Sequence record: SRR9188677_168
DNA length: 64,000 bases
Direction: 5' to 3' (one strand)
The notes beneath the pieces were generated by a model, which was not told the origin of the DNA, ran no database searches, and saw only the letters and a list, made by a program, of their open reading frames with translations. The position numbers and the translations under genes were made by a program. Of this stretch, positions 1 through 39,201 are shown one piece after another; within the stretch, counting starts at the first letter, position 1, and every line of letters begins with the position of its first letter.

Positions 1-25
1 AAAGGAGGCAATTGCCTCCTTTTTT
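1..25. terminator. Intrinsic terminator-like hairpin downstream of psd
   Basis: AAAGGAGGCA-at-TGCCTCCTTT inverted repeat with flanking A/T tracts; clipped by the window edge. Confidence 0.65.
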
Positions 26-46
26 ATACCCCTGCAAATATTCGTT

Positions 47-895
47 TTAGCGCCCCATGGCTTCACCCAGCCGGATCGGTTTACCCGCGTGCCAGCTGTC
101 GTTAAATTTCAATACATCTTTTTCAAACAGCATGACCACGGTAGAACCCAGCAGAAAGCGGCCCATTTCTTCACCTTGTTTCAGGCTGATGTTTCGGTCG
201 CTGTAATCCCAGTGTAGAACCTTACTTGGACGTGGCGGATTGATGATATGGTCTTTGGTGTCATGCCAAACGGTGGCCATGCTGCCGACAATGGTTGCGC
301 CGACTAACACTAGTACAAATTTTCCATGCTGTGCAGATTCGAACGTACATACTACACGTTCGTTGCGTGCAAACAGGCCGGGTACATTGGCGGCAGTGAC
401 TGGATTCACTGAAAATAAATCGCCTGGTACGTAAGTCATCTGCAACAGTTTTCCCTCGCAAGGCATATGGATGCGGTGGTAATCCTTGGGGCTTAAATAC
501 AGGCAGGCAAAGCTGCCGTTGTCAAACTTGGCGGCTAATGTGGCATCGCCACCAACTAAAGCTTGTGCCGTGTAGTGATGACCCTTGGCCTGGAAAATCT
601 GGCCTGACTTGATATCGCCAAACTGGCTGATGGCACCATCTACCGGACAGATAAAAGCATTGCTTTCCAATGGCCTGACGCCTGGCCTCAGCGGACGGGT
701 GAAAAACAGGTTGAATGAGGCGTAACTGGCAATATCACCGTTGAGCGCTTCTTCCATATTGACGTGGTACTTGCGCACAAACCAGCCGATAAAAGCCGTA
801 GTCAGGGCGCCAGCCTGCCAATGCGCCAGTTTGCCGGCAGCGGCAGTCAGCAATTGTTTGGGTGCGATGTATTGCAGCAGAATAGAGAGTTTCAC
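47..895 (-). CDS. psd: Phosphatidylserine decarboxylase proenzyme
   Basis: FFTRPL, YLSPKDYHRIH and the LGST self-cleavage motif (RFLLGSTVV). Confidence 0.95.
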   Translation of the reverse strand: MKLSILLQYIAPKQLLTAAAGKLAHWQAGALTTAFIGWFVRKYHVNMEEALNGDIASYASFNLFFTRPLRPGVRPLESNAFICPVDGAISQFGDIKSGQIFQAKGHHYTAQALVGGDATLAAKFDNGSFACLYLSPKDYHRIHMPCEGKLLQMTYVPGDLFSVNPVTAANVPGLFARNERVVCTFESAQHGKFVLVLVGATIVGSMATVWHDTKDHIINPPRPSKVLHWDYSDRNISLKQGEEMGRFLLGSTVVMLFEKDVLKFNDSWHAGKPIRLGEAMGR

Positions 896-960
896 TTCAT
901 TCCCTTATTGGCTTGTACGGTTTCAATCCCGAACAAGAAGTTTTTTGTGCGATGTTAAAT

Positions 961-999
961 AAAAAAGCACAGGCGATATTACATCGGCCTGTGCTTTTT
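961..999. terminator. Intrinsic terminator of the ilvIHC operon (possibly bidirectional)
   Basis: AAAAAGCACAGGC...GCCTGTGCTTTTT inverted repeat just past the ilvC stop. Confidence 0.8.
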
Positions 1000-1061
1000 G
1001 CCTATGGCTGGTTAATGTGTTTTAAACGCAACCATAAGGCTTGATCAATTCACCAGGAATA

Positions 1062-2093
<1,032 letters not shown>

Positions 2094-4391: not shown

Positions 4392-4539
4392 AAAATCTTG
4401 ATTATTATGCTAATTAATGTTGAACCCTATACATTAGCTTGCTTTGGTAGTTTGGTCAAGATTATCGCGGTTTACACAATGTATTTGAAACAGTGGGTGG
4501 ATAATTGCAAAGAGTTTGCAAATAATTGTTGACTTTCTA

Positions 4540-4558
4540 AATGAGAAACATTATCATT
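4540..4558. promoter_or_regulatory. Fur box overlapping promoter of the hyp-rpsD2-hemP unit
   Basis: AATGAGAAACATTATCATT matches the 9-1-9 Fur consensus AATGATAATnATTATCATT; TTGACT -35-like hexamer at 4529-4534. Confidence 0.8.
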
Positions 4559-4589
4559 TAACCACTGATTGAAGAAAGTTAACCAAACG

Positions 4590-4898
4590 ATGCAAACTGA
4601 ATTAGCTGTCGAAGCAAGTGATCTTTTTGATCCTGACCTGCCAACAGCCAGCGCAGTACTTGTATCGTTGAGTTGTGTAGCAACCCGCTATGCGGTCAAT
4701 CCTTCCGAAGACCTTGCATTGTTGGGATGCAGTTTGGCGCAGACATTAAACGCGCCAGAGTATGCGGAAAGCCATTTGATTGAATCGGCGGCGAAGCAGT
4801 TGTTACAGGATTGGCAGGCGCTTTTACAGGCGCATCGTGAATTTTCATTGCAGCAGGAAGTCACGGATTTTGTCACCCCCTCTTCAACTTTACAATAA
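4590..4898 (+). CDS. Hypothetical helical protein, first gene after the Fur box
   Basis: ORF 4569-4898; ATG at 4590 preferred; no recognised family. Confidence 0.65.
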   Translation: MQTELAVEASDLFDPDLPTASAVLVSLSCVATRYAVNPSEDLALLGCSLAQTLNAPEYAESHLIESAAKQLLQDWQALLQAHREFSLQQEVTDFVTPSSTLQ

Positions 4899-4976
4899 TA
4901 CGCTACAATATAGGGTTTACTAATTAGTAGCGACTAATTTTCTTCATTTCAGATTTTAAAGGAAAGGCTTTAAACA

Positions 4977-5591
4977 ATGAGAACCACAGGACCAAGATTA
5001 AAGATTATGCGTGCGTTAGGTATTGAATTACCTGGCTTGTCACGCAAGTCTATTGAAAACCGCCCAAATCCACCGGGCCAGCATGGCAATCAGGCAGCGC
5101 GTCGTCGCCGTTCAGATTTTGCTGTGAAATTGGTGGAAAAACAAAAGATTCGTTTTAACTACGGTGTGAGCGAAAAGCAAATGCGTGGTTTGATGCTGGA
5201 AGCCCGTAAAGGTAATGAGCCTACTGGTGAAAAATTGATGTCTTTGCTTGAGCGCCGTTTAGATAACGTTGTGTTCCGTGCAGGGTTTGCGCCAACTGGT
5301 ATTGCAGCTCGCCAATTGGTAAGCCATGGTCATATTTTGTTGAACGGTAAATCAGCAAATATTCCATCTATCCGCTTGAAAGTGGGTGATGTGGTGACGT
5401 TGAAAGAGAAAAGTCGCAAGATTCCGATGGTGGTTGAAGCGTTAGCTACACCAAGCCTGGCAATTCCTGAGTGGGTGTCTGTTGATTCGACAACTGCTTC
5501 TGTGAAAGTTGGACATTTGCCTTCGATTGAAGATGTACCATTCCCGCTGGATGTTCAGCAGGTAGTTGAATATTACGCTAACCGCGTTTAA
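4977..5591 (+). CDS. rpsD: 30S ribosomal protein S4 paralog (cysteine-free, outside the alpha operon)
   Basis: PPGQHG, EKQKIRFNYG, LERRLDNVVFRAGF, ARQLVSHGH, VVEYY; strong RBS; not flanked by rpsK/rpoA. Confidence 0.93.
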   Translation: MRTTGPRLKIMRALGIELPGLSRKSIENRPNPPGQHGNQAARRRRSDFAVKLVEKQKIRFNYGVSEKQMRGLMLEARKGNEPTGEKLMSLLERRLDNVVFRAGFAPTGIAARQLVSHGHILLNGKSANIPSIRLKVGDVVTLKEKSRKIPMVVEALATPSLAIPEWVSVDSTTASVKVGHLPSIEDVPFPLDVQQVVEYYANRV

Positions 5592-5784
5592 GAAATGCTT
5601 CGAGCAGCCCGAAGGCTGCTCGAATAAGAGTTTGAGCAATGCTCCTAACCCCAACATGTCATTGCTCAAATAGGCGTTGTTTTTTATGCGCCAAATTACC
5701 CCTGGTAAGGGTGTTCCTTGAAATCTGATGCCGCTGTGCTTTTGCATGTAAGTCGGCTTTTTTTTGGGGTCCAATCATATAGGA

Positions 5785-6015
5785 ATGAATAGCCAAATGC
5801 AACCTTTGTCTGGCAAAAACCCATCGCTGGTACAGGTTTCGGGCGCGCCTCTGGCTGTGATCGATGCCGTGCAACTTCTGGGTAATGCGTCAGGGGTGGT
5901 TATTTTGCATGGCAATGAAACCTATAAACTTACGCGCACCAAGCAAAACAAATTATTGTTAACCAAATGCCACCATGAAATTGTGGATGGCAGCCTTGGT
6001 ATTCATGAATTGTAA
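5785..6015 (+). CDS. hemP: Hemin uptake protein HemP/HmuP family
   Basis: VILHGNETYKLTRTKQNKLLLTK matches the HemP core; start uncertain (5785 or 5797). Confidence 0.82.
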   Translation: MNSQMQPLSGKNPSLVQVSGAPLAVIDAVQLLGNASGVVILHGNETYKLTRTKQNKLLLTKCHHEIVDGSLGIHEL

Positions 6016-6174
6016 GTTTTGTGATCTGATTTAATTCCTGGTTGTCTTGGTAATGTAGCCGAGAGATTGCTGCTGAATGACTAACCTTGCTCTAGTCATA
6101 GATAACGTTGTTGGGCAAAGTCACTGAATAATTTTACTTTTAACGAACTCAATGTCATTCTTTGAGTAAATTGA

Positions 6175-6193
6175 TATGATAATGATGCGCATT
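6175..6193. promoter_or_regulatory. Fur box upstream of tonB
   Basis: TATGATAATGATGCGCATT (reverse complement AATGCGCATCATTATCATA). Confidence 0.65.
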
Positions 6194-6233
6194 AACTTGC
6201 CTTCTGGCTATTTTTCTACAAGTATGAGGATGG

Positions 6234-7100
6234 GTGTGGATGTTTCAGCGTGAATTGATAACAGGGTTGCCCCTAAGGCCTGCGCAGCAACGTGTGCCCA
6301 AGGTTCCTGAGCTGAGCTTGCATCATCGTCAACCTGCACAATTGGCAGGCATTTTTAGCTGGCCAAGCTTCGCGACTGAAGCCTGGTTAAGACAAGATAA
6401 AGGCCAACGCTGGTCTATTGTAGGTTTGCTGACCGTCATTTTGCTACATGCAGCCCTGGTCTGGTGGGTGTTTATACAGGCCGAAACGCCAATCAAGCCA
6501 CCTAAACCAGAGCCGATCACGGTTTCCCTGATTACCCTGCCAGCAAAAAAAGAAGAGGCGCCTGCGCCAGAAGTAGTCCCTATCATCAAGCAAAAACCGG
6601 TTGAAAAACCTGTCATCAAACCCAAAGAAACACCGGTTAAACCAGTAGAGCGTCCAACGCCCGTGGTTGAGCGGATTGTCGAGCCTGTAGCGGATCAGCC
6701 AAAGTTTGAAGCCAGTACCCAGCCCGCAGCACCACCAATGGAAGCGCCAGTCGCGGCTTCAGCCAAACCGGCACCAGCGCCAGCTGCTCCTCCCAAGCAA
6801 GAAGTTGTTGAAGAAAAAGAAGAGCCGCCTAAATTCGGTGTGGCTTACCTGAATAATCCTCCTCCCGAATATCCCAAGCTGGCCAAACGCGCCGGCGAAG
6901 AAGGGCGTGTATTGTTAAAAGTACTGGTGTCAGCCGAAGGTCGTCCGGAAACGGTAGAGGTTTCAAAAGGCAGTGGGTTTGAACGCCTGGATACCGCGGC
7001 CTTAAATGCAGTGAAACAATGGCGGTTTGAACCGGCGCGCAAAGGTGGAAAAGCATTGAGTGCTTATGTCATTGTGCCATTAGCGTTTACGTTAAATTAA
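6234..7100 (+). CDS. tonB: Energy transducer TonB
   Basis: TM helix with LLHAAL, Pro/Lys/Glu-rich linker, C-terminal YPKLAKRAGEEGRV...WRFEPA. Confidence 0.93.
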   Translation: MWMFQRELITGLPLRPAQQRVPKVPELSLHHRQPAQLAGIFSWPSFATEAWLRQDKGQRWSIVGLLTVILLHAALVWWVFIQAETPIKPPKPEPITVSLITLPAKKEEAPAPEVVPIIKQKPVEKPVIKPKETPVKPVERPTPVVERIVEPVADQPKFEASTQPAAPPMEAPVAASAKPAPAPAAPPKQEVVEEKEEPPKFGVAYLNNPPPEYPKLAKRAGEEGRVLLKVLVSAEGRPETVEVSKGSGFERLDTAALNAVKQWRFEPARKGGKALSAYVIVPLAFTLN

Positions 7101-7151
7101 TTATCAAGTTTGTACTAAATATTAAAAGTTTGATTGGAAAGGAATTTTTTA

Positions 7152-7892
7152 ATGGAATCTACGAGCGGATTGGCTTTTATCACTGAAGGTGGCGTTGTGT
7201 CAGTGATCGTGGCGCTGATTTTACTGACGATGTCAGTATTAAGTTGGTATTTTGTGGTTGTGAAATCCTGGCAGGTATTTAAACACAAACGCCAGGTTTC
7301 CGAGTATGTGCGTCAGTTCTGGCGTAAATCGACATTGCAGGAAGCAATGCAGGAAACACAGCATCATTCCCCAGCTTATAAACTGGCGCAGACAGCCGTA
7401 GAGTCTACCCAGCATCACCAGCAATATGCGGCGCAATCATTAGGTGCTGCATGCAGCCAGGATGAGTTTATTGCCAGACAATTGCGTCGTACCTTGTCGC
7501 AAGAGCAGGCCGGACTGGAGAGCGGCCTTTCCGTACTGGCTTCAGTTGGTAGCGTGGCGCCATTTGTAGGTTTGTTTGGTACGGTGTGGGGTATTTACCA
7601 CGCGCTGACTGCCATTGGTCAATCTGGGGTTGCCACAATCGATAAAGTGGCCGGCCCGGTGGGTGAAGCATTGATTATGACGGCGATTGGTTTGGCTGTC
7701 GCTATCCCTGCAGTATTGGCATACAACGCATTTATTAAAGCGAACCGCGGCATTATGGCCGAGCTGGAAAGTTTTGCCCAGGACCTGCATACCTTGCTGA
7801 CGACAGGGGCGCCGCTGATGATAAAGCCAGGCAGTAAGTCCAATGTCCGCGAGTTACACACCAGAGTAGTGAATAAAGGTGGCAATCCATGA
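7152..7892 (+). CDS. exbB: ExbB (MotA/TolQ/ExbB family)
   Basis: APFVGLFGTVWGI and EALIMTAIGLAVAIPA; ATG 7152 preferred. Confidence 0.92.
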   Translation: MESTSGLAFITEGGVVSVIVALILLTMSVLSWYFVVVKSWQVFKHKRQVSEYVRQFWRKSTLQEAMQETQHHSPAYKLAQTAVESTQHHQQYAAQSLGAACSQDEFIARQLRRTLSQEQAGLESGLSVLASVGSVAPFVGLFGTVWGIYHALTAIGQSGVATIDKVAGPVGEALIMTAIGLAVAIPAVLAYNAFIKANRGIMAELESFAQDLHTLLTTGAPLMIKPGSKSNVRELHTRVVNKGGNP

Positions 7893-8308
7893 TCGGTAAT
7901 AATCCATTCAGCGCGGGCGAGCACACGCAGCCGATGAGCGAGATCAACACCACGCCGTTAGTGGATGTGATGCTGGTGCTGCTGGTGATTTTTATCATTA
8001 CTGCCCCTTTGCTGACGCATGCAGTAAAAATTGACCTGCCGCAGGCGACTTCACAACCGCTGGAAGAAAAGCCGGAAGTGATAGACCTGGCTGTAGATGC
8101 CGATGGCAAGATGTTCTGGAACGATACGGAAATTGATCAGGCTACCCTGGTGACGCGTATGAAGGACGAAAGCGTGAAAAAAGAGCAGCCGGAGTTGCAG
8201 ATACGTGCCGATAAAAATACCCGGTATCAGGTGCTGGCTGAAGTATTGGCACAAGCGCAAACCGCAGGGATGAAAAAAGTTGGTTTTGTCAGCCAGCCAC
8301 AGCAGTAA
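7889..8308 (+). CDS. exbD: ExbD
   Basis: EINTTPLVDVMLVLLVIFIITAP and IRADK motifs; overlaps the exbB stop. Confidence 0.93.
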   Translation: MIGNNPFSAGEHTQPMSEINTTPLVDVMLVLLVIFIITAPLLTHAVKIDLPQATSQPLEEKPEVIDLAVDADGKMFWNDTEIDQATLVTRMKDESVKKEQPELQIRADKNTRYQVLAEVLAQAQTAGMKKVGFVSQPQQ

Positions 8309-10376: not shown

Positions 10377-10544
10377 ATATATCACTTGTCCATGGATTGT
10401 GTAGCTTCAAATTACCTGAGCAGATCCAGTTAGATGCGATCTGTATTTTGCAAGCGGCTATGTCTATGGTTCATGAATTTTTTGGCGCATACTTCATGTT
10501 AGCAATGGCAAAGACGCTGCCAGTTTTGATGTGTTCTACTTGAA

Positions 10545-10747: not shown

Positions 10748-11296
10748 ATGACCGATCAGGAAAAACTTCAGTCAGTGGCTAAAGAAGCCATTGCGTTCAA
10801 AGGGCAGTTCAAAACAGTGCAACTGGCCAGCGTTAATGCGCAAGGGGTGCCTGAGGCAAGTTATGCCGCTTATGTTGAGCGTGATAACAAGTTTTATATC
10901 TATGTGAGTGAACTGGCAACACATTGTGCCAACCTGCGCGAAACCGGCCTGTGTTCCGCGATGTTTGTTGAGAGTGAAAAAGACGCGGGTCATCTTTTCG
11001 CCAGAAAACGCCTGGTGTTCAAATGCACAGCACAGGAAGTTGAACGTAGCTCAGCCAAATTTGATGAAGTGATGGCGCTTTTCTATGAAAAATTCGGCAA
11101 CTTCATGGATGCGATCGGTAAGTTGACCGATTTCCATATGATTGAGCTAATGCCAACGCATGGCAGTTACGTTGCAGGTTTTGCTAAAGCCTATCACCTG
11201 AATGGCCAAGATTTGTTACAAATCACACATCGTAATGACCAGGGCCATGCTGCACCAGACGCATCTGCACAACAGAAACTGGATGAGCTGGCATAA
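10748..11296 (+). CDS. HutZ/HugZ-like heme utilisation protein (pyridoxamine 5'-phosphate oxidase-like split barrel)
   Basis: PEASYA, YVSELATHCANL, LFARKRL, YVAGFAKAY; first gene of the heme operon. Confidence 0.82.
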   Translation: MTDQEKLQSVAKEAIAFKGQFKTVQLASVNAQGVPEASYAAYVERDNKFYIYVSELATHCANLRETGLCSAMFVESEKDAGHLFARKRLVFKCTAQEVERSSAKFDEVMALFYEKFGNFMDAIGKLTDFHMIELMPTHGSYVAGFAKAYHLNGQDLLQITHRNDQGHAAPDASAQQKLDELA

Positions 11297-15175: not shown

Positions 15176-15239
15176 AGCTTCCATTCAAATCTTGTAGTCG
15201 AGTCTTTAGCAGGCACTCTGATACCTTCTTGAGTAATTG

Positions 15240-15258
15240 AATGATAATTGTTATCATT
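15240..15258. promoter_or_regulatory. Fur box
   Basis: AATGATAATTGTTATCATT, near-perfect consensus. Confidence 0.88.
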
Positions 15259-32077: not shown

Positions 32078-32271
32078 AAAAACAGCTTCCAGACAATAAC
32101 AGTCTTGAAGCTATTATCTTTTTTGTTGCAGTCAAGACTGCAATCACATTTAGCTAAGTTGAATTGTCATTTCAATTTAGCTGTCATTAAGCCGCTAGCC
32201 ACCGGTCACGTTAAATGTTGTAAAAAGTTCCATTGATCACTATAAGTCTTAAATTTCCCGTTGATAATACA

Positions 32272-32290
32272 AATGATAATTGTTATCATT
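32272..32290. promoter_or_regulatory. Fur box at the promoter of the orphan/PEP-CTERM unit
   Basis: AATGATAATTGTTATCATT inside the palindrome CAAATGATAATTGTTATCATTTG; TTGATA -35-like at 32261-66; identical to the box at 15240. Confidence 0.9.
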
Positions 32291-32325
32291 TGAGAATACA
32301 GTATTAATTAACGGTTAAAAACTTC

Positions 32326-32550: not shown

Positions 32551-32880
32551 GGGGATATTTCCCCAAAAGTTCCGACGGCATGGGGCCGTGGAAATGTTGA
32601 GTTGAGTAGTTCGCCCGCAAGCGCCTTCATGAGGAAGGGTCAACGGCATTATCCATGGCACCTTGTTTCTACTTGGGTTTCTACCTAGGTTTCTACGTGG
32701 TATTGCATGCTTATGTTCATAAGCATCATCTCGCCTCTGATTACATACTCAACAAGACATTAAAAGATTCGTTTATCTGCAGGACTTATGTCTTGTAGAG
32801 CAGCATATGCTGCAAACGAGCATGCCAGCTACCTCTAACTAGGAGAAGAGGGGTAGCCGGTTTAATGGGCTTGTGCCCGT
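32551..32880 (+). ncRNA. Candidate structured cis-regulatory RNA or ncRNA of unknown family
   Basis: Non-coding gap packed with stems, several with G-U pairs and nested closure (see findings); folding judged by eye. Confidence 0.5.
32665..32700 (+). repeat. 3 x 12-bp imperfect tandem repeat (GTTTCTACnTrG)
   Basis: GTTTCTACTTGG / GTTTCTACCTAG / GTTTCTACGTGG. Confidence 0.9.
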
Positions 32881-32900
32881 ATGACTATGGAGAAGAAAAA

Positions 32901-33827
32901 ATGATGAATCAACTAAGTTTCAAACCACTTTCAATCGTTGCATTGACTGCTTTCAGTCTGAATATTGGCTCGGCTTTCGCTGCGATACCTACCGGTATTC
33001 AGGATGCTATCCCTGTCGCTAAATCGCTGAATGGTACTAAAAAGGATGACGGCTGGTATAACCTGAGCGCAGCTTCTCAAACCAAAACGGTGGATGGTAC
33101 GCCGGTTACGATCGCTGGTATCCCTGGTGGTGGCTTCCCGGGTACAGCACCACTGCCTAATGTGGTCTCACAGGTTAAATCTGACACTGACAATTCAGCG
33201 ACTTTCAGAAAGGTGAGCAATGGTGCCGCAGGTGGCGCTTTCCCATCAAGTGAAAGTCTATATGCCGGCTCTTTCAGCGGTGCTTACAATTTTAACGGCG
33301 GCAAGCTGGGTGTGTTTGAAACTGCGCCTGTTGAGAATCTGGCCAACGTAGTATTTCAGGTAGAGCTTGGCGGCGCCAATGGTTATGATTTTTACCAACC
33401 TTCTGTCGGGGCTACAATTACAGCGGGCGGGGCTTCAGCCTTGTCGGTAGGTGCTTTAACCGTGACCAACTACTTCCCTACACTCAACCTGACATTTGGA
33501 GATAACACAACAACCCAGTTATCTGCCAACTGGGCTGAACTGAGCACCAAAGGCCAGAACGGTACAACAAGTGCTGGCGGTACTGAAGAGCCGATTTACA
33601 TCAACCTGTATGCATTCCAATGGGATCTGAGCGGCTACAGCAATATTTCATCGTTCAATGTGATTTTCGATGTGGTCGCTCACAGTCAAACCTACGCAGC
33701 CCGCCTGACACAGAGCGACACGTTCAATCAAGTGGTTGCGGTACCAGTGCCTGAACCAGAGTCATATGCAATGATCCTTGCGGGATTAGGCTTGATCGGC
33801 TTTGCAGCACGCCGCCGTCAGGTTTGA
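32901..33827 (+). CDS. PEP-CTERM sorting-domain surface protein 1
   Basis: Signal peptide; C-terminal VPEPESYAMILAGLGLIGFAARRRQV; ATG 32901 follows GGAG. Confidence 0.9.
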   Translation: MMNQLSFKPLSIVALTAFSLNIGSAFAAIPTGIQDAIPVAKSLNGTKKDDGWYNLSAASQTKTVDGTPVTIAGIPGGGFPGTAPLPNVVSQVKSDTDNSATFRKVSNGAAGGAFPSSESLYAGSFSGAYNFNGGKLGVFETAPVENLANVVFQVELGGANGYDFYQPSVGATITAGGASALSVGALTVTNYFPTLNLTFGDNTTTQLSANWAELSTKGQNGTTSAGGTEEPIYINLYAFQWDLSGYSNISSFNVIFDVVAHSQTYAARLTQSDTFNQVVAVPVPEPESYAMILAGLGLIGFAARRRQV

Positions 33828-34066: not shown

Positions 34067-34726
34067 ATGAAATTATCAGCTTTAGCTTTGGCTTTGGGTA
34101 TGGCATTCAGTGGTTCTGCATTTGCTGCAGCGGCTACCTGGAACTCCGCAACACCATGGGGTAGCGATGCTACTGCATCTTTTGCGCAGTGGAGTGCTAT
34201 TGAATCTATCAATGACACTACTCCGGATGCCGGTTTTAGCGGTGCCACTTCTGCTTCGTTGCGTGAAACATCCGGCAACGGATTCGTGACTGGTGGCGGC
34301 CTGGGTGGCAACATCTACAGTTTTACAGGCACAACAACGTTCACCGCTACTTTGGGTGGCGGCGCGACTACGGGTTTATTTGATGTGTACCTGCGCATCG
34401 GTACCATTGGTGAGGTTGCAGGTACATCAGCAACTTTAAATGGTACTGCAGCCACTTCAGTCGTGTGGGATGGTGGTGCAGCAGGTGGTCCATTTGGTGG
34501 TGCTGCGCAAGAGGTGTACTGGAAATGGGAAGACGTTACAGCATCCAGCCTGTATACATTTAACTTCGCTGCTATTGGTCCTCACATGAGTCTGGATCAA
34601 GTGGCGCTGGCAACAGTTTCTGTGCCGACAGTCACTCCTGTACCAGAACCAGAAGCGTTCAGCATGATGGCACTGGGCCTGGGTCTGATGGCATTTGTTG
34701 CACGTCGTTCTTCCAAAAAAGCCTAA
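34067..34726 (+). CDS. PEP-CTERM sorting-domain surface protein 2
   Basis: Signal peptide; C-terminal VPEPEAFSMMALGLGLMAFVARRSSKKA; GAGGAG RBS. Confidence 0.9.
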   Translation: MKLSALALALGMAFSGSAFAAAATWNSATPWGSDATASFAQWSAIESINDTTPDAGFSGATSASLRETSGNGFVTGGGLGGNIYSFTGTTTFTATLGGGATTGLFDVYLRIGTIGEVAGTSATLNGTAATSVVWDGGAAGGPFGGAAQEVYWKWEDVTASSLYTFNFAAIGPHMSLDQVALATVSVPTVTPVPEPEAFSMMALGLGLMAFVARRSSKKA

Positions 34727-34809: not shown

Positions 34810-37143
34810 ATGTTGGCAAGCCTTAAATATTACTGGCAATTCACAAAAACAAAGAACATTCCAACTATGTGGCTTTGTGGTCTGGTCGTTTTAGCGACAT
34901 TGTTAATTACCAGTCCGCATGTATCAGCAGCAGAAGATGCTGCACAAGAAGAGTCGCAAACTAAAGCGGTAAACACGCTCTCGCCAGCGGTGCCTCAACA
35001 GACTGAAACGGACAAGTTAGAGACCTTACCTGAGGTATCTGTCAAAGACAAAAGAGTCATTGAAAATTCAGGCATCAACCGGACACTTCCAATTACAACT
35101 ATCACGTCTGACCAGTTACAGCGTAGTCAGCCTAGCAATATCTTTGATGCCGTGCGATCAGCTCCAGGCGTATCTATCAACGGCGGTCCCCGCCCAAGTG
35201 GTATGTCATTCAATATTCGAGGCTATGAGGACAATGAAGATGTGCTGGTCAAGGTCGATGGAGTACCTAAAGGGTTTGAGAAGTACCGGATGGGTGGCAC
35301 ATTTATTGAGCCAGAATTACTTAAAAGTATAGAGATTCAACGCGGTCCGCAAATTGCCAGCGGATCAGGCTCGTTGGGGGGAACCGTCATCGCAAATACT
35401 AAGGATGCCGAAGATTTTTTGAAGCCTGGTCAGAAATATGGCGCAAAAGTCAAATTCGGCTATGGTAATAATAGTGATGAGTATTCCCGATCCTATTTAC
35501 TGTATGCCAGGCCTGATGAGCGAGTGGATATTCTTTACAACTATTCAAACAGGACTGCCAATAACATTACATTAGGTGATAATTCCAAGCTGGCAAATTC
35601 AGCGATACAGTCAGTTTCTCATCTACTGAAATTCAGTCTTTTTCCGACTGAGGATTTGCAGTTGGTCACTTCTATAGTTAAGTTTGAGGATTCAGGACTG
35701 CAGCAATATGATGTGAATTCCGCGACGCCAGGTTTCTTTGGTAAAACTATTCGCTCCGTGGACGATTTCACATGGTCTGAAACCGTAAAGTACAATCCAG
35801 ACCATCCATGGGTGAACCTTAAAGCTATTGTAGGTGCTGGACACTCGGATGTTGAGGATTTTTTCCCGCCAGGATTCTCTGATGTGGTAAACCGGGCTCA
35901 ACCTGATTGTAACGGGATTATTTACATACCTGATCCAAGCAACACTGGAATATGCAGGGGTAATGCCACGGATACTTACAACTTCAAAACCAGGACTGTC
36001 GATATTAGTAATGAGGCGATTTTTGCCGAGAAGGGGTTTTTCAATGTCTCATTATTAACTGGTTATCAATATAATTTCAGTCATCGCGATGTGACTCGCG
36101 TTTTTGATAATGCGGTGATTAGCCCTGTCGGTGGCTTTAATCCTGCTGTCCCACCCGGAACGAAAACCTTTCATGCGATTTATATCCAGCCAAAATTTGA
36201 AATTGGCCAGGTAAGTATCATTCCTGGCTATAGGCAGGATATATATAAAGTAGAGGCAGATGGCGGCACATTAGCTTTGCTGAGACGCTTTGGTCAAGAA
36301 AGTAAAATAGAGTTCAAAGAAGAAACCTGGAGTTTAGGGTTGGCCTATGATTTTTTTGATAGAAAAAATCCAGAGAAACTGACGCTTTACAGCAATTATG
36401 GACAGGGATTCCGTCCGCCTTTGATCGATGAGTATTTCACACAAGGCCCATTTGGTTTTTGCAGATCAGCATTTATGCCGACACAGGGAAGACCTTCAGA
36501 AATTTGTGGTGATTACTACAAACCACAATTGTCCGAATCGACGGAGGCCGGCGTAAGTTATCAAACCCCACATCTGCTTGGCACCGATGTATTTTTCACC
36601 GGCAAGCTTAATTTCTTTCATATCAATACTTCAAGATTGCTCTCATCTTTAGGTGAGGATAATGGGCGTGTGACGCAGGATGGCTGGGAGCGCAGAAATG
36701 GGGTTGAGATCGAAAGCTTTGTCCAATACAAAAGCTTATATGCGCGTGCCGGATACTCTCGGATTACAGGAGAGCAGGTCACAGGTCATCTCGATTTGAT
36801 TAATACGCCACTTTTCACTGCGCCTGGTAATACCTTCAATTTGAATGTCGGCGCTGAATTAAGCAAGAGTGTCGATATCAACTTAACTTACAGGAGGGTC
36901 TCAGAGAGGGACATCATTGTCGGTGGTTCTGGGACACTCCTTAATCCCTACAGATTTGGTATCCAGGATGGATATGAATTATGGAATGCCGGTGTCCGTT
37001 GGAAGGCCAGCGAACAACTAACGTTCAGATTGATCGGGGAAAATCTGAAGAATGAGTTTTATAACCTGAATGGTTCATTCGGATCTCTTGGTTTGCCAGC
37101 GCCTGGCCGTAATGTCAAATTTCTGGTCGAGCTGACATATTAA
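34810..37143 (+). CDS. TonB-dependent receptor, heme/hemoglobin-receptor-like
   Basis: PGVSINGGPRPSGMSFNIRG plug, FIEPELLKSIEI.RGP, FRPP (FRAP-like), C-terminal PAPGRNVKF.VELTY. Confidence 0.85.
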   Translation: MLASLKYYWQFTKTKNIPTMWLCGLVVLATLLITSPHVSAAEDAAQEESQTKAVNTLSPAVPQQTETDKLETLPEVSVKDKRVIENSGINRTLPITTITSDQLQRSQPSNIFDAVRSAPGVSINGGPRPSGMSFNIRGYEDNEDVLVKVDGVPKGFEKYRMGGTFIEPELLKSIEIQRGPQIASGSGSLGGTVIANTKDAEDFLKPGQKYGAKVKFGYGNNSDEYSRSYLLYARPDERVDILYNYSNRTANNITLGDNSKLANSAIQSVSHLLKFSLFPTEDLQLVTSIVKFEDSGLQQYDVNSATPGFFGKTIRSVDDFTWSETVKYNPDHPWVNLKAIVGAGHSDVEDFFPPGFSDVVNRAQPDCNGIIYIPDPSNTGICRGNATDTYNFKTRTVDISNEAIFAEKGFFNVSLLTGYQYNFSHRDVTRVFDNAVISPVGGFNPAVPPGTKTFHAIYIQPKFEIGQVSIIPGYRQDIYKVEADGGTLALLRRFGQESKIEFKEETWSLGLAYDFFDRKNPEKLTLYSNYGQGFRPPLIDEYFTQGPFGFCRSAFMPTQGRPSEICGDYYKPQLSESTEAGVSYQTPHLLGTDVFFTGKLNFFHINTSRLLSSLGEDNGRVTQDGWERRNGVEIESFVQYKSLYARAGYSRITGEQVTGHLDLINTPLFTAPGNTFNLNVGAELSKSVDINLTYRRVSERDIIVGGSGTLLNPYRFGIQDGYELWNAGVRWKASEQLTFRLIGENLKNEFYNLNGSFGSLGLPAPGRNVKFLVELTY

Positions 37144-37203: not shown

Positions 37204-38154
37204 TTATGGCTGTTCTTGTTTTATAGAATGCCTACGGCGTGCAGCCAAACTAATTAGTCCTAAACCCGTTACTAACATAAGAAAGTTGCCCGGTTCCGGC
37301 ACTGCGGAGACATTTACTTGCCAACCGATATCTTTAAACGCTGCGTAGTCCAGAACAGTCGGCAATTCACGTTGGCCTCTTACTGTACTTGGATCCATCA
37401 GTGTTTCCTGTGTGACGCCGTTGTAGGTGCTCGAAACACCTGGTGCCCAGTGACTACGATATTGGTCTACAGGAACCGCACTACCATAGCTTGCAACGGA
37501 TGCTGCGCCAGTGAAGTAGCCGTTATCGATTTGCGCTAGCCATGAATCTGCTTCGCCGAAACCAAGAATATGCCCTATTTCGTGTGTTGCTGTGGTGAGA
37601 AAATCCGGGCGCTCAACGGTCAAACCACCAACATCACTGCCGAAGTACCAATCGTTGGCGGCATTGAACCAGATCATGCCACCCCATACAGCATAATCCG
37701 TTGCTGCAGGACCGGTTGTATTGGCTTGTCCGCGGGTTGTCACTGAATCTACAAATGCATCAGACCCGGTGGCGATAAGGTTGTAACCAGTATCGGCGAA
37801 GCCTAATACTCCTGGTGCCGAGGAGGAGCCACCTACATAAATGCGCAATGTGTCTGAAGCGATGTTGAGGTTGTTTAAGGTGATAGGTGCACCTGCCAAG
37901 CTGGGGTGCGTCATTTGTACAGACCAGACGTCACCGGCCTGTGGTGTGATTGCCGTCAATGTATCGGTAAATGTGTTGTAAAAGGAAGCAGCTCGATCAA
38001 GGATCGCTCTACGCTCAAGAAGTGGTGTTCCCGTGACAAGGTCTGTAAAAAAGCCTCTGGTATCGTACGTGTAGTCAAATTCGATGGTAAGCGCTTGTGC
38101 TGGTATGGTGGCAAGTAACCCTACAGCTGCCGCTGATATGTGCAATTTTTTCAT
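37204..38154 (-). CDS. PEP-CTERM-anchored zinc metalloprotease (metzincin, leishmanolysin/M8-like arrangement)
   Basis: Signal peptide MKKLHISAAAVG; HEIGHILGF...SHW...TLMDP; C-terminal VPEPGNFLMLVTGLGLISLAARRR; ATGA overlap with the upstream gene. Confidence 0.82.
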   Translation of the reverse strand: MKKLHISAAAVGLLATIPAQALTIEFDYTYDTRGFFTDLVTGTPLLERRAILDRAASFYNTFTDTLTAITPQAGDVWSVQMTHPSLAGAPITLNNLNIASDTLRIYVGGSSSAPGVLGFADTGYNLIATGSDAFVDSVTTRGQANTTGPAATDYAVWGGMIWFNAANDWYFGSDVGGLTVERPDFLTTATHEIGHILGFGEADSWLAQIDNGYFTGAASVASYGSAVPVDQYRSHWAPGVSSTYNGVTQETLMDPSTVRGQRELPTVLDYAAFKDIGWQVNVSAVPEPGNFLMLVTGLGLISLAARRRHSIKQEQP

Positions 38155-38891
38155 GTGTTTTTTCTTCCTTTTAACAGCAGGATTGATAACCCCCCCAGCA
38201 ACAATGCCCATGTACCAGGTTCAGGCACTGGTATTGCGGATAGTGGTGTGACAGCACCTGTACCTGTACCATACACATCTTGTAGTGTGGCGATCATCAT
38301 GTTATTTAACGGGAAAACCGGGCCGGTATAGGCAGAGTTCGACAGTATTGAATTCCCAGGGTCATCTGAGTCAATGTAATGCCCCATACCTAGCGAGTGG
38401 CCCAATTCATGCTGTGCGACTGCATAGAATAAAACCTGGCTCCAGCCAAAACCGAAACGCTGTCCATTGAATATCACATCGCCAGCTAATCCACTGGTGT
38501 CGGTGTCCTGGGGGAAATAAGCATAGGCATTGGCATCATCCACATGCGGCACCACCCCGATCCGGATATCAGCCAGGCCAGTAGGATCGTATTGCCCTGT
38601 TTCCGGTAGCGGGCCATGATCAGCCACTTCTACAAAGTGAATAGGCAACACTGCAGCATAGTCAGCAAATGCCTGTTCGAATGCGCTGCGCATAATGTCT
38701 GTTGAAAGCGATTGTCCGGCAGTGCTGATAATCCCGCCATCAAATAAATTGCTGTAGCTGTATGTCAGGGTAATTGGGGAACCTATGCCATCAGGCTGGT
38801 CCCAACTTGCATACATGGGATAATAGCCCCCCCAGGCAGTGCCCGATACCAGGCAAGCCAGTACCGTTGCACGATGTAAATGCTTGAACAT
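38151..38891 (-). CDS. PEP-CTERM-anchored matrixin (M10)-like metalloprotease
   Basis: Signal peptide; ADIRIG, AYAYFP, GDVIFN, HELGHSLGMGH, LQDVYG; C-terminal VPEPGTWALLLGGLSILLLKGRK. Confidence 0.85.
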   Translation of the reverse strand: MFKHLHRATVLACLVSGTAWGGYYPMYASWDQPDGIGSPITLTYSYSNLFDGGIISTAGQSLSTDIMRSAFEQAFADYAAVLPIHFVEVADHGPLPETGQYDPTGLADIRIGVVPHVDDANAYAYFPQDTDTSGLAGDVIFNGQRFGFGWSQVLFYAVAQHELGHSLGMGHYIDSDDPGNSILSNSAYTGPVFPLNNMMIATLQDVYGTGTGAVTPLSAIPVPEPGTWALLLGGLSILLLKGRKNT

Positions 38892-38950
38892 GCTTCATCC
38901 TCTCAAAACTATTAAATTTATTGTCTGGTGATTTTACCTCATTAAATGTT

Positions 38951-38969
38951 AATGAGAATTATTATCAAC
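38951..38969. promoter_or_regulatory. Fur box upstream of the protease pair
   Basis: AATGAGAATTATTATCAAC about 60 bp upstream of the minus-strand ATG at 38891. Confidence 0.75.
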
Positions 38970-39201
38970 ATAAATTTATAAGTTTTTATAGTGAAAAAAA
39001 CTATATTCAGAGAGGTAAGCTGAAGTTGTAAATGAAGCTTTGCAAGCAGGAGTTTTTGCTTGATAAATAAATTATCTAACGTGGATGGATAGCTTAATCT
39101 GCAAATAGAACGGAGCTTTTAAATACGGGGGTGGAGTGTATCCACTGGCTTTTTCTCGACGCCTTAAAATTCCAGCACCGAGTTATTCTGATGAGTCTGT
39201 T

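Follow-up and report, generated by a model that had tools for sequence, protein, structure and literature searches.

A cysteine-free paralog of ribosomal protein S4 behind a conserved Fur-type operator, adjacent to iron- and heme-uptake genes in Methylophilaceae

The window analyzed here, a stretch of 64,000 nucleotides (nt) from sequence record SRR9188677_168, contains a gene for a paralog of ribosomal protein uS4, hereafter S4p (Table 1), which an original prediction made from the sequence alone had described as a full-length S4 without cysteine, apparently controlled by the iron regulator Fur rather than the zinc regulator Zur. The open reading frame (ORF) and the protein family models agree with the first part of that description: the product starts with MRTTGPRLKIMRALGIELPGL, the N terminus that had been quoted, contains no cysteine, matches PF00163 over residues 2-92 (66.8 bits) and PF01479 over residues 93-140 (61.7 bits), and exceeds the cut-offs of both the NCBIfam rpsD equivalog NF003717 (237.3 bits, cut-off 116) and TIGR01017 (225.2 bits, cut-off 177.2). 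The best named relatives come from Methyloradius sp. (98%) and Methylophilus species (84-94%), and the source organism is therefore a member of the Methylophilaceae. In comparisons with same-genus orthologs, the ratio of nonsynonymous to synonymous substitution rates (dN/dS) is 0.04-0.05, with dS close to saturation, which indicates strong purifying selection on S4p in genomes with two S4 copies.

The gene does not belong to a ribosomal protein operon. As had been claimed, neither rpsK nor rpoA was found near S4p, and the neighbors are non-ribosomal, with a divergent ilvI and a small ORF on the 5' side and hemP-tonB-exbBD on the 3' side. The location of S4p between a Fur box and hemP-tonB was likewise recognized correctly, but the conserved ORF of 102 amino acids (aa) that separates the box from S4p had been overlooked. 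This small ORF was listed with 109 aa from a TTG codon, and alignment of its orthologs places the start at Met8. No Pfam, NCBIfam, or ESM Atlas family was identified for its product, the best Atlas score (0.88) being a lead only, and its 33 database relatives are unnamed or hypothetical, with Methylophilus as the single taxon label. Relative to the ortholog in locus L004, the dN/dS of the small ORF is ~0.05.

Table 1. Features of the S4p locus and of loci compared with it (positions refer to the window unless a locus is named)
Feature	Position	Strand	Remarks
Palindrome TTGCAAAGAGTTTGCAA	4505..4521		two mismatches to the putative Zur operator of G001; just 5' of the -35 hexamer
Predicted sigma-70 promoter	4529..4557	+	-35 TTGACT 4529-4534, 17-nt spacer, -10 TATCAT 4552-4557; 10/12 matches
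Fur-type operator over the -10 hexamer	4537..4561	+	family consensus AAATGAGAATCATTATCATTT
Conserved small ORF (orf109/orf102)	4590..4898	+	102 aa; first gene of the two-gene unit
Promoter-like match TTGTCA, 18 nt, AATAAT	4870..4899	+	10/12 matches; inside the end of the small ORF
S4p, Cys-free full-length uS4 paralog	4977..5591	+	204 aa; ATG start, intact ORF
G+C-rich hairpin	5598..5624		11 pairs; directly after the S4p stop codon
hemP, hemin uptake protein	5764..6015	+	PF10636, 44 bits; true start probably internal
Second Fur-type box, upstream of tonB	6172..6196	+	matrix score 13.3 bits; generic consensus 15/19
tonB, exbB, exbD	6234..8308	+	tonB 6234-7100, exbB 7134-7892, exbD 7889-8308
Upstream small ORFs in five Betaproteobacteria outside the Methylophilaceae	L119 2684-2926; L120 2678-2968; L121 2708-2971; L122 2365-2661; L051 1216-1479		
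Leaders of S4p in genomes with S4p only	L032 2101-2345; L033/L034 1195-1437; L020-L023 1258-1500; L025/L030 2110-2352	-; +; +; -	
Operon of 150-aa Fur-family paralog, 141-aa dksA-like protein, and COG0523-type GTPase	L044 (G001:C5) 1-1746	-	

The predicted promoter of the unit is covered at its -10 hexamer by the Fur-type operator, and this arrangement is conserved. Among 30 loci fetched from the family for comparison, a TTGACA-like hexamer followed after 5 nt by AAATGAGAATCATTATCATTT is kept in 23, and the box is present in all 23 of the loci that contain the small ORF; the seven loci without the box are exactly those of genus g17, whose members carry S4p only. Scanning the window with a generic 19-nt Fur consensus at a threshold of at least 14/19 matches yielded 12 positions in seven sites, whereas 30 shuffles gave 1.4 positions on average and 4 at most; the S4p box itself matches at 14/19. 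With an operator matrix built from the 23 family boxes (maximum of 15.0 in 20 shuffles), the next-best matches after the S4p box were located at 15237, 17660, and 23511, before the TonB-dependent receptor genes at 15241, 17633, and 23610, and at 10542 (before a heme-utilization gene at 10748), 6172 (before tonB), 32269, and 38948. All seven sites of the generic consensus are among those of the matrix and include the ones before tonB and the receptor genes, the one before the heme gene being found with the matrix alone. Judged by these scans, the operator motif of S4p is the motif of the iron-uptake genes in the same window.

As a proxy for the source genome, we used the nearest genome, G001, which has 52% of the sampled words in common with the window. 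G001 encodes a typical Fur (PF01475, 158 bits), and its putative Zur palindrome differs from the motif that the S4p operator has in common with tonB, three receptor genes, and the heme gene, in agreement with the earlier assignment of the operator to the Fur rather than the Zur type. We consider it likely that S4p is controlled by Fur, which would bind to the box and give way to derepression when iron is low.

The small ORF and S4p form a conserved two-gene layout. Of the 30 family loci, 23 have the small ORF ahead of S4p, whereas those of g17 lack it; in family genomes with two S4 genes, the box and the small ORF invariably accompany S4p, and the two were lost together in g17. The spacer between the two genes measures ~12-50 nt in most family loci and 78 nt in the window. 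Four metatranscriptome runs, three of them belonging to the same study and the fourth to a second one, yielded contigs that start at 4573-4583, ~15-25 nt after the -10 hexamer, with no contig further upstream, and contigs X6 (4583-5281) and X12 (4582-5064) cross the junction between the small ORF and S4p. Contig cover is also absent from 5462-5789, although such gaps, including the one upstream of 4573, are uninformative. The agreement of the contig starts with the predicted promoter is a weak hint that this promoter is used. A constitutive promoter of its own for S4p within 4899-4976 had been named at the outset as a finding that would count against the prediction; what was found is a promoter-like match that ends at the border of this interval (4870-4899), in a region alignable with the closest relative only, together with the short spacers of most family loci. 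The hairpin that follows S4p resembles a terminator on the minus strand only, no T-run following it on the plus strand.

On its 3' side, S4p borders genes for iron acquisition. Among the 30 family loci, hemP comes after S4p in 16, and a tonB homolog is located downstream in 22. The window contains a large iron/heme island at 5764-26500, with S4p at its edge. Beyond hemP-tonB-exbBD, the island encodes two PepSY_TM proteins, an azurin-like cupredoxin, a PNPOx-like heme-utilization protein, HemS/ChuX, a heme-type ABC transporter (Peripla_BP_2, FecCD, and ATPase), four TonB-dependent receptors, and a PKHD-type 2OG-Fe(II) hydroxylase, and its Fur-type boxes are those at 6172, 10542, 15237, 17660, and 23511. 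Outside the island, a strong Fur-type box at 32269-32295 precedes genes for PEP-CTERM proteins (32865-33827 and 34067-34726) ahead of a receptor gene at 34810, and another strong box at 38948-38972 precedes a PEP-CTERM matrixin-like peptidase gene on the minus strand (38151-38891). A PEP-CTERM protein gene and a receptor gene also follow S4p in Methyloversatilis (L119).

The housekeeping counterpart of S4p is of a different type. G001 encodes an S4p 100% identical to that of the window and, in the alpha operon rpsM-rpsK-rpsD-rpoA-rplQ, a 209-aa canonical S4 with 40% identity to S4p, so that the expected canonical rpsD is present in the nearest genome and, by extension from G001, presumably in the source genome; all six further sampled genomes of the same genus also contain two S4 matches. 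The motif CxxC...CxxxxC is present in all 45 alpha-operon S4 genes sampled (from G001, 20 family genomes with S4p, 20 without it, and four genomes of other families), whereas the 46 S4p locus rows, which represent 39 distinct places, all lack it and have 0-1 cysteines. A copy with the motif and a Cys-free copy coexist in G001 and in the 20 sampled two-copy genomes of the family.

S4 proteins have been divided into C+ and C- forms (Chen, Roberts, and Luthey-Schulten 2009; PMC3087516), and phylogenetic analysis places the two copies on either side of this division. In a FastTree phylogeny of 174 rows (37 S4p, 13 canonical S4, and 124 of 150 library representatives; 31 further distinct canonical rows were omitted at random for legibility, and 26 library rows because their lengths fell outside 190-215 aa), S4p from genomes of the order Burkholderiales forms a single clade (support 98) nested in an all-C- clade of 67 rows (support 99), whereas canonical S4 forms a separate clade (support 99) far from S4p. 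Cyanobacterial S4 proteins are 45-48% identical to S4p, and the S4 chains nearest to it among ribosome entries of the PDB are the ~200-aa chains of 8fmw, 8crx, and 32nj, which match it in its N-terminal part. For the canonical copy, end-to-end alignments were obtained with the S4 chains of 7unr and 6v39 and with the many-entry Thermus-type chain 10px_1d, the full-length alignment with Thermus S4 scoring 236 bits. The tree thus supports the original view of S4p as a second S4 of foreign type, probably acquired horizontally, the same view having been taken for Nitrosomonas and Methylobacillus (PMC3087516).

In some relatives, S4p is the only S4. With S4p-type genes called at no less than 60% identity, 54 of 121 Methylophilaceae genomes carry one, and in 14 of these the S4p query retrieved the S4p type alone, 10 of the 14 genomes being at least 95% complete. 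One of these 10 and a would-be counterexample, G098, in which a Fur-like box lies 600 nt upstream of the gene, also lacks rpsK, its alpha operon being unassembled, and was therefore removed from the count of genomes with S4p only. In the alpha operon of G002, G017, G029, G043, G052, and G108, rpsM-rpsK is followed directly by rpoA after a gap of 60-90 nt, and no rpsD was found there. G043 was examined through its alpha operon; in the other five genomes, a canonical S4 query returned the S4p-type gene (69-71% identical to S4p of the window) as the sole match. On this genomic evidence, S4p is the only S4 in genus g17 (seven of seven genomes) and in a few others. Because it suffices there as the sole S4 beside an alpha operon devoid of rpsD, the S4p type is a working ribosomal protein, and S4p of the window is almost certainly a functional uS4, which would be incorporated into the 30S subunits of its host.

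These S4p-only loci have neither the operator nor the partner ORF and, as far as can be read from the DNA, have acquired a strong, constitutive-looking promoter and a structured leader instead. The absence of the box from g17 fits a loss of repression once S4p had become essential. The gene is located downstream of htpG, and both its extended -10 promoter (TTGTATAAT) and its 5' leader, ~170 nt long and with several hairpins, are conserved; RNAalifold predicted 36 pairs for this leader, nine of them with compensatory changes, from nine sequences in three genera, and an Rfam scan of the leader loci returned chance matches only. We consider this leader a candidate for a new S4 autoregulatory element. 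G043, which belongs to another genus, has its own S4p (69% identical to that of the window) and, on the 2.3-kb contig L003 (G043:C96), a second S4p with 98% identity next to an ilvI with 99% identity. The contamination value for G043 is 4%, and the second gene is probably a contaminant from a window-like organism.

Outside the Methylophilaceae, an S4p-type gene was identified in 4 of 293 genomes of an order-level sample, with 58-65% identity, and all four genomes also contain a C+ S4. Among named records, the gene follows tonB-exbB-exbD in Methyloversatilis universalis and precedes the PEP-CTERM protein and receptor genes mentioned above; two bacterioferritin genes come after it in Azovibrio restrictus; in a Dechloromonas metagenome-assembled genome (MAG), it follows a receptor gene, with a class-II fumarase-like gene 1.7 kb away; and in Uliginosibacterium aquaticum, it is located between hemP and a ferritin-like gene. 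The neighborhood of the S4p type is related to iron in all four genera examined, with differing gene content, and TTGACA with a Fur-like palindrome is present upstream in two of the four (Methyloversatilis and Dechloromonas). An ORF of 81-99 aa is located directly upstream of S4p in Methyloversatilis, Azovibrio, Dechloromonas, and genome G242, and upstream of hemP-S4p in Uliginosibacterium. A profile of the family small ORF retrieved the one in L119 with an hmmsearch E value of 0.0033 among 218 ORFs (the others, >0.5), and hhalign between the two groups gave an E value of 0.023 over 30 columns. These ORFs appear to be positionally equivalent to the family ORF, and their homology to it is weakly supported. 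The small ORFs outside the family share a loose pattern of a hydrophobic helix followed by L..W and a C-terminal His. Two loci from records titled "MAG: Acidovorax caeni" do not fit the record name: the S4p of L117 is 89% identical to that of the window and has the Methylophilaceae box at -447, whereas L180 gives a match at the cyanobacterial level (46%), and the bins or labels look mixed.

Elements related to zinc are present in the lineage as well. G001 encodes two proteins of the Fur family, the typical Fur and a 150-aa paralog, which we take to be Zur-like because a dksA-like gene and a COG0523 GTPase, with which it forms an operon, are the usual company of Zur. Two TTGCAAC-N3-GTTGCAA palindromes separate the first two genes of this operon, and the same palindrome precedes a His-rich ORF and a receptor gene, the putative Zur motif being deduced from these two loci. 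The Fur matrix found no match in the zur-like locus of G001, and the palindrome is unlike the S4p box. The palindrome just upstream of the S4p promoter is the only match in the window with at most two mismatches to this motif. A single L31 gene was found in G001.

The gene family and its patchy distribution were already known. According to the parts of the 2009 study available to us, Nitrosomonas europaea has a C+ and a C-(IV) S4, Methylobacillus flagellatus has only a C-(IV) form, located outside the alpha operon, and horizontal gene transfer was proposed, as was loss of the C+ gene in Methylobacillus; the S4 pair is framed there as zinc versus non-zinc, Zur sites were sought near S4 paralogs and none were found, no other regulator is named in those parts, and the corresponding main text nowhere uses the words iron, Fur, or TonB (PMC3087516). 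Our full-text searches, with supplementary files outside their scope, found no report linking an S4 paralog to Fur or iron. To judge from these searches, what is new is the Fur operator together with the iron context, the partner ORF, and the logic of sparing iron.

Taken together, these observations can be explained by a swap of S4 forms that spares iron. The small ORF and S4p would constitute an operon the promoter of which is occluded by Fur as long as iron is plentiful, while the housekeeping S4 from the alpha operon would hold a 4Fe-4S cluster at CxxC...CxxxxC, as is reported for Thermus ribosomes. When iron becomes scarce, Fur would leave the promoter, S4p would be made, and newly assembled 30S subunits would receive the Cys-free S4 instead of the Fe-S form, so that iron and Fe-S assembly capacity would be spared, much as zinc is spared by the Zur-controlled Cys-free forms of L31, L36, and S14. 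We regard this explanation as a whole as somewhat more probable than not; the steps that it would add to the observed layout are induction at low iron, replacement of one S4 by the other in the ribosome, and whatever part the small ORF may play. It draws on the report that uS4 of Thermus thermophilus coordinates an Fe4S4 cluster through (CXXC)-(CXXXXC), for which the 4Y4Y structure is cited (Helena-Bueno et al. 2023; PMC10450194), although in the accessible parts of that paper C- isoforms are still assumed to respond to zinc. Given this report, control by Fur would be the expected logic rather than an oddity, and the contrast with zinc drawn in the original prediction largely dissolves.

Several points weigh against this explanation. 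An Fe-S cluster in uS4 is documented for Thermus only, and its presence in mesophilic C+ S4 is assumed by analogy. Early Thermus structures reportedly took the Cys site of S4 for a zinc ribbon. The 2009 paper, in the parts at hand, also treats the site as zinc-binding (PMC3087516). The score of the window box with the operator matrix, 33 bits, is partly circular, the matrix having been built from its orthologs, and the canonical rpsD of the source genome is deduced from G001. The promoter-like match at the end of the small ORF could possibly permit Fur-independent transcription of S4p, and metatranscriptome contigs cannot establish a single transcript, its start, or its regulation. The Zur-like palindrome may represent a second, zinc-related input or a chance match. 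In more distant taxa, no Fur-like box was found upstream of three class-level homologs (48-49% identical), and among eight loci from Myxococcota, Zetaproteobacteria, Oligoflexales, and similar groups, clear iron-transport neighbors are present in one (Nannocystis), with a hemerythrin neighbor in another, from Kofleriaceae; the link to iron is therefore not demonstrated beyond Betaproteobacteria.

Some of these points can be accommodated by other explanations. S4p might be a constitutive spare or co-housekeeping S4, transcribed mainly from a promoter of its own near 4870-4899, with the Fur box serving the small ORF or providing a modest boost and the position next to tonB being an inherited accident of insertion. 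Besides the promoter-like match, the S4p-only relatives are in line with this possibility: they have a strong constitutive-looking promoter and yet a tonB homolog is adjacent to S4p, so that adjacency to tonB alone is no proof of control by iron. However, the spacer in most family loci is too short for a separate intergenic promoter, the box, small ORF, and S4p co-occur in genomes with two S4 genes while the box and the small ORF disappear jointly in g17, the RNA contigs start a short way past the Fur-box promoter and extend into S4p, and the surroundings in four other genera are all iron-related despite their differing gene content, which together make a constitutive spare unlikely. Alternatively, the swap could be real and serve zinc economy or protection from oxidants, if the four cysteines of the canonical protein bind zinc in these mesophiles; control by Fur would then reflect iron starvation linked to zinc or redox stress, or dual control by Fur and Zur. 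The zinc-ribbon view of the site would favor this scenario, as would the palindrome at 4505-4521 and the operon with zur-like, Cys-poor dksA-like, and COG0523 genes in G001, which implies that zinc-sparing logic is present in the lineage. The palindrome, however, is confined to close relatives, whereas the Fur box is kept more widely; the classical zinc-sparing paralog of L31 is missing from G001, which has the one L31 gene; and Zur sites near S4 paralogs were not found in the 2009 study as far as available (PMC3087516), while Fe4S4 has been reported for uS4 of the later Thermus structure (PMC10450194). A zinc or oxidant rationale accordingly appears improbable to us.

The original prediction also considered that S4p moonlights as an RNA regulator during iron starvation. 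In this view, its main site of action would lie outside the ribosome, where it would repress translation or cause antitermination in operons for iron uptake or for ribosomal proteins. Extraribosomal roles of Escherichia coli S4 are documented, and S4p is located directly upstream of hemP-tonB. Against it, the S4p type serves as the sole S4 in relatives with an alpha operon devoid of rpsD, the protein is full length, conserved along its whole length, and above the equivalog cut-offs, and no RNA element save the one hairpin was found between S4p and hemP. This possibility is disfavored, and we consider it highly improbable.

Extending the iron-sparing swap beyond this locus, we tentatively propose, as a conjecture in which we would place rather less than even confidence, that the ribosomes of many bacteria contain an Fe4S4 uS4, that in Betaproteobacteria a Fur-derepressed module of partner and Cys-free uS4 swaps in at iron starvation, making the ribosome a managed reservoir of iron, and that the partner, present only where two S4 forms coexist, might be an exchange or assembly factor. 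Switching between ribosomal protein paralogs has so far been a story of zinc, with S4 as the odd one out, its C- paralogs having been cataloged in 2009 without a regulator. The conserved Fur operator, the iron-related neighborhoods, and the Fe4S4 reported at the motif suggest a simple, testable answer, namely, that the S4 switch is an iron switch. If true, it would be the first iron-responsive switch of a ribosomal protein paralog; ribosomes would be a sizeable sink of iron and Fe-S clusters in bacteria with C+ S4; iron limitation would remodel the small subunit at the first step of its assembly; and iron economy would lie behind the repeated loss of the Cys motif, which has gone to completion in Methylobacillus-like lineages. 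In addition, a small uncharacterized protein family emerges as a candidate factor linked to the alternative S4. Methylophilaceae are easily grown and non-pathogenic, so each of these steps is directly testable.

Among known systems, the closest parallel is provided by the Zur-controlled Cys-free paralogs of ribosomal proteins (L31B/YkgM, L36B/YkgO, S14, S18, L28, and L33). In both cases, a Cys-bearing housekeeping copy is complemented by a Cys-free copy encoded elsewhere, behind an operator that overlaps the promoter and belongs to a metal sensor of the Fur family, and the logic of sparing metal by replacement in the ribosome, as described in the available parts of the respective papers (PMC10931766; PMC3087516), would be the same. 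The differences are that the S4p operator is of the Fur type and common to iron-uptake genes, that S4 is a primary 16S rRNA-binding assembly protein whereas the Zur-controlled paralogs are small and peripheral, that the metal reported at the Cys site of S4 is Fe4S4 rather than Zn, and that S4p is preceded by a conserved partner ORF. The C-(IV) S4 paralogs, compared here by their description in the available text only (PMC3087516), appear to represent the same protein type, in the same lineage: S4p is likewise located outside the alpha operon and falls into the 67-row C- clade, and g17 behaves as described for Methylobacillus. To that description, the present analysis adds the Fur box, the partner ORF, the iron-related neighborhoods, and the occurrence of the type in 54 of the 121 Methylophilaceae genomes. 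With uS4 of T. thermophilus (PDB 4Y4Y, according to the parts of PMC10450194 at hand), the canonical S4 of the lineage has the (CXXC)-(CXXXXC) motif in common. S4p differs from both in lacking it.

Classical iron-sparing substitutions linked to Fur are also known, with flavodoxin replacing ferredoxin, FumC replacing FumA, and SodA replacing SodB. As in the arrangement proposed for S4p, an iron-free isofunctional protein is made when Fur is inactive and takes the place of an Fe or Fe-S protein, and a gene resembling class-II fumarase is found near S4p in the Dechloromonas locus. Those substitutions concern metabolic enzymes, however, whereas S4 is a stoichiometric component of the ribosome.

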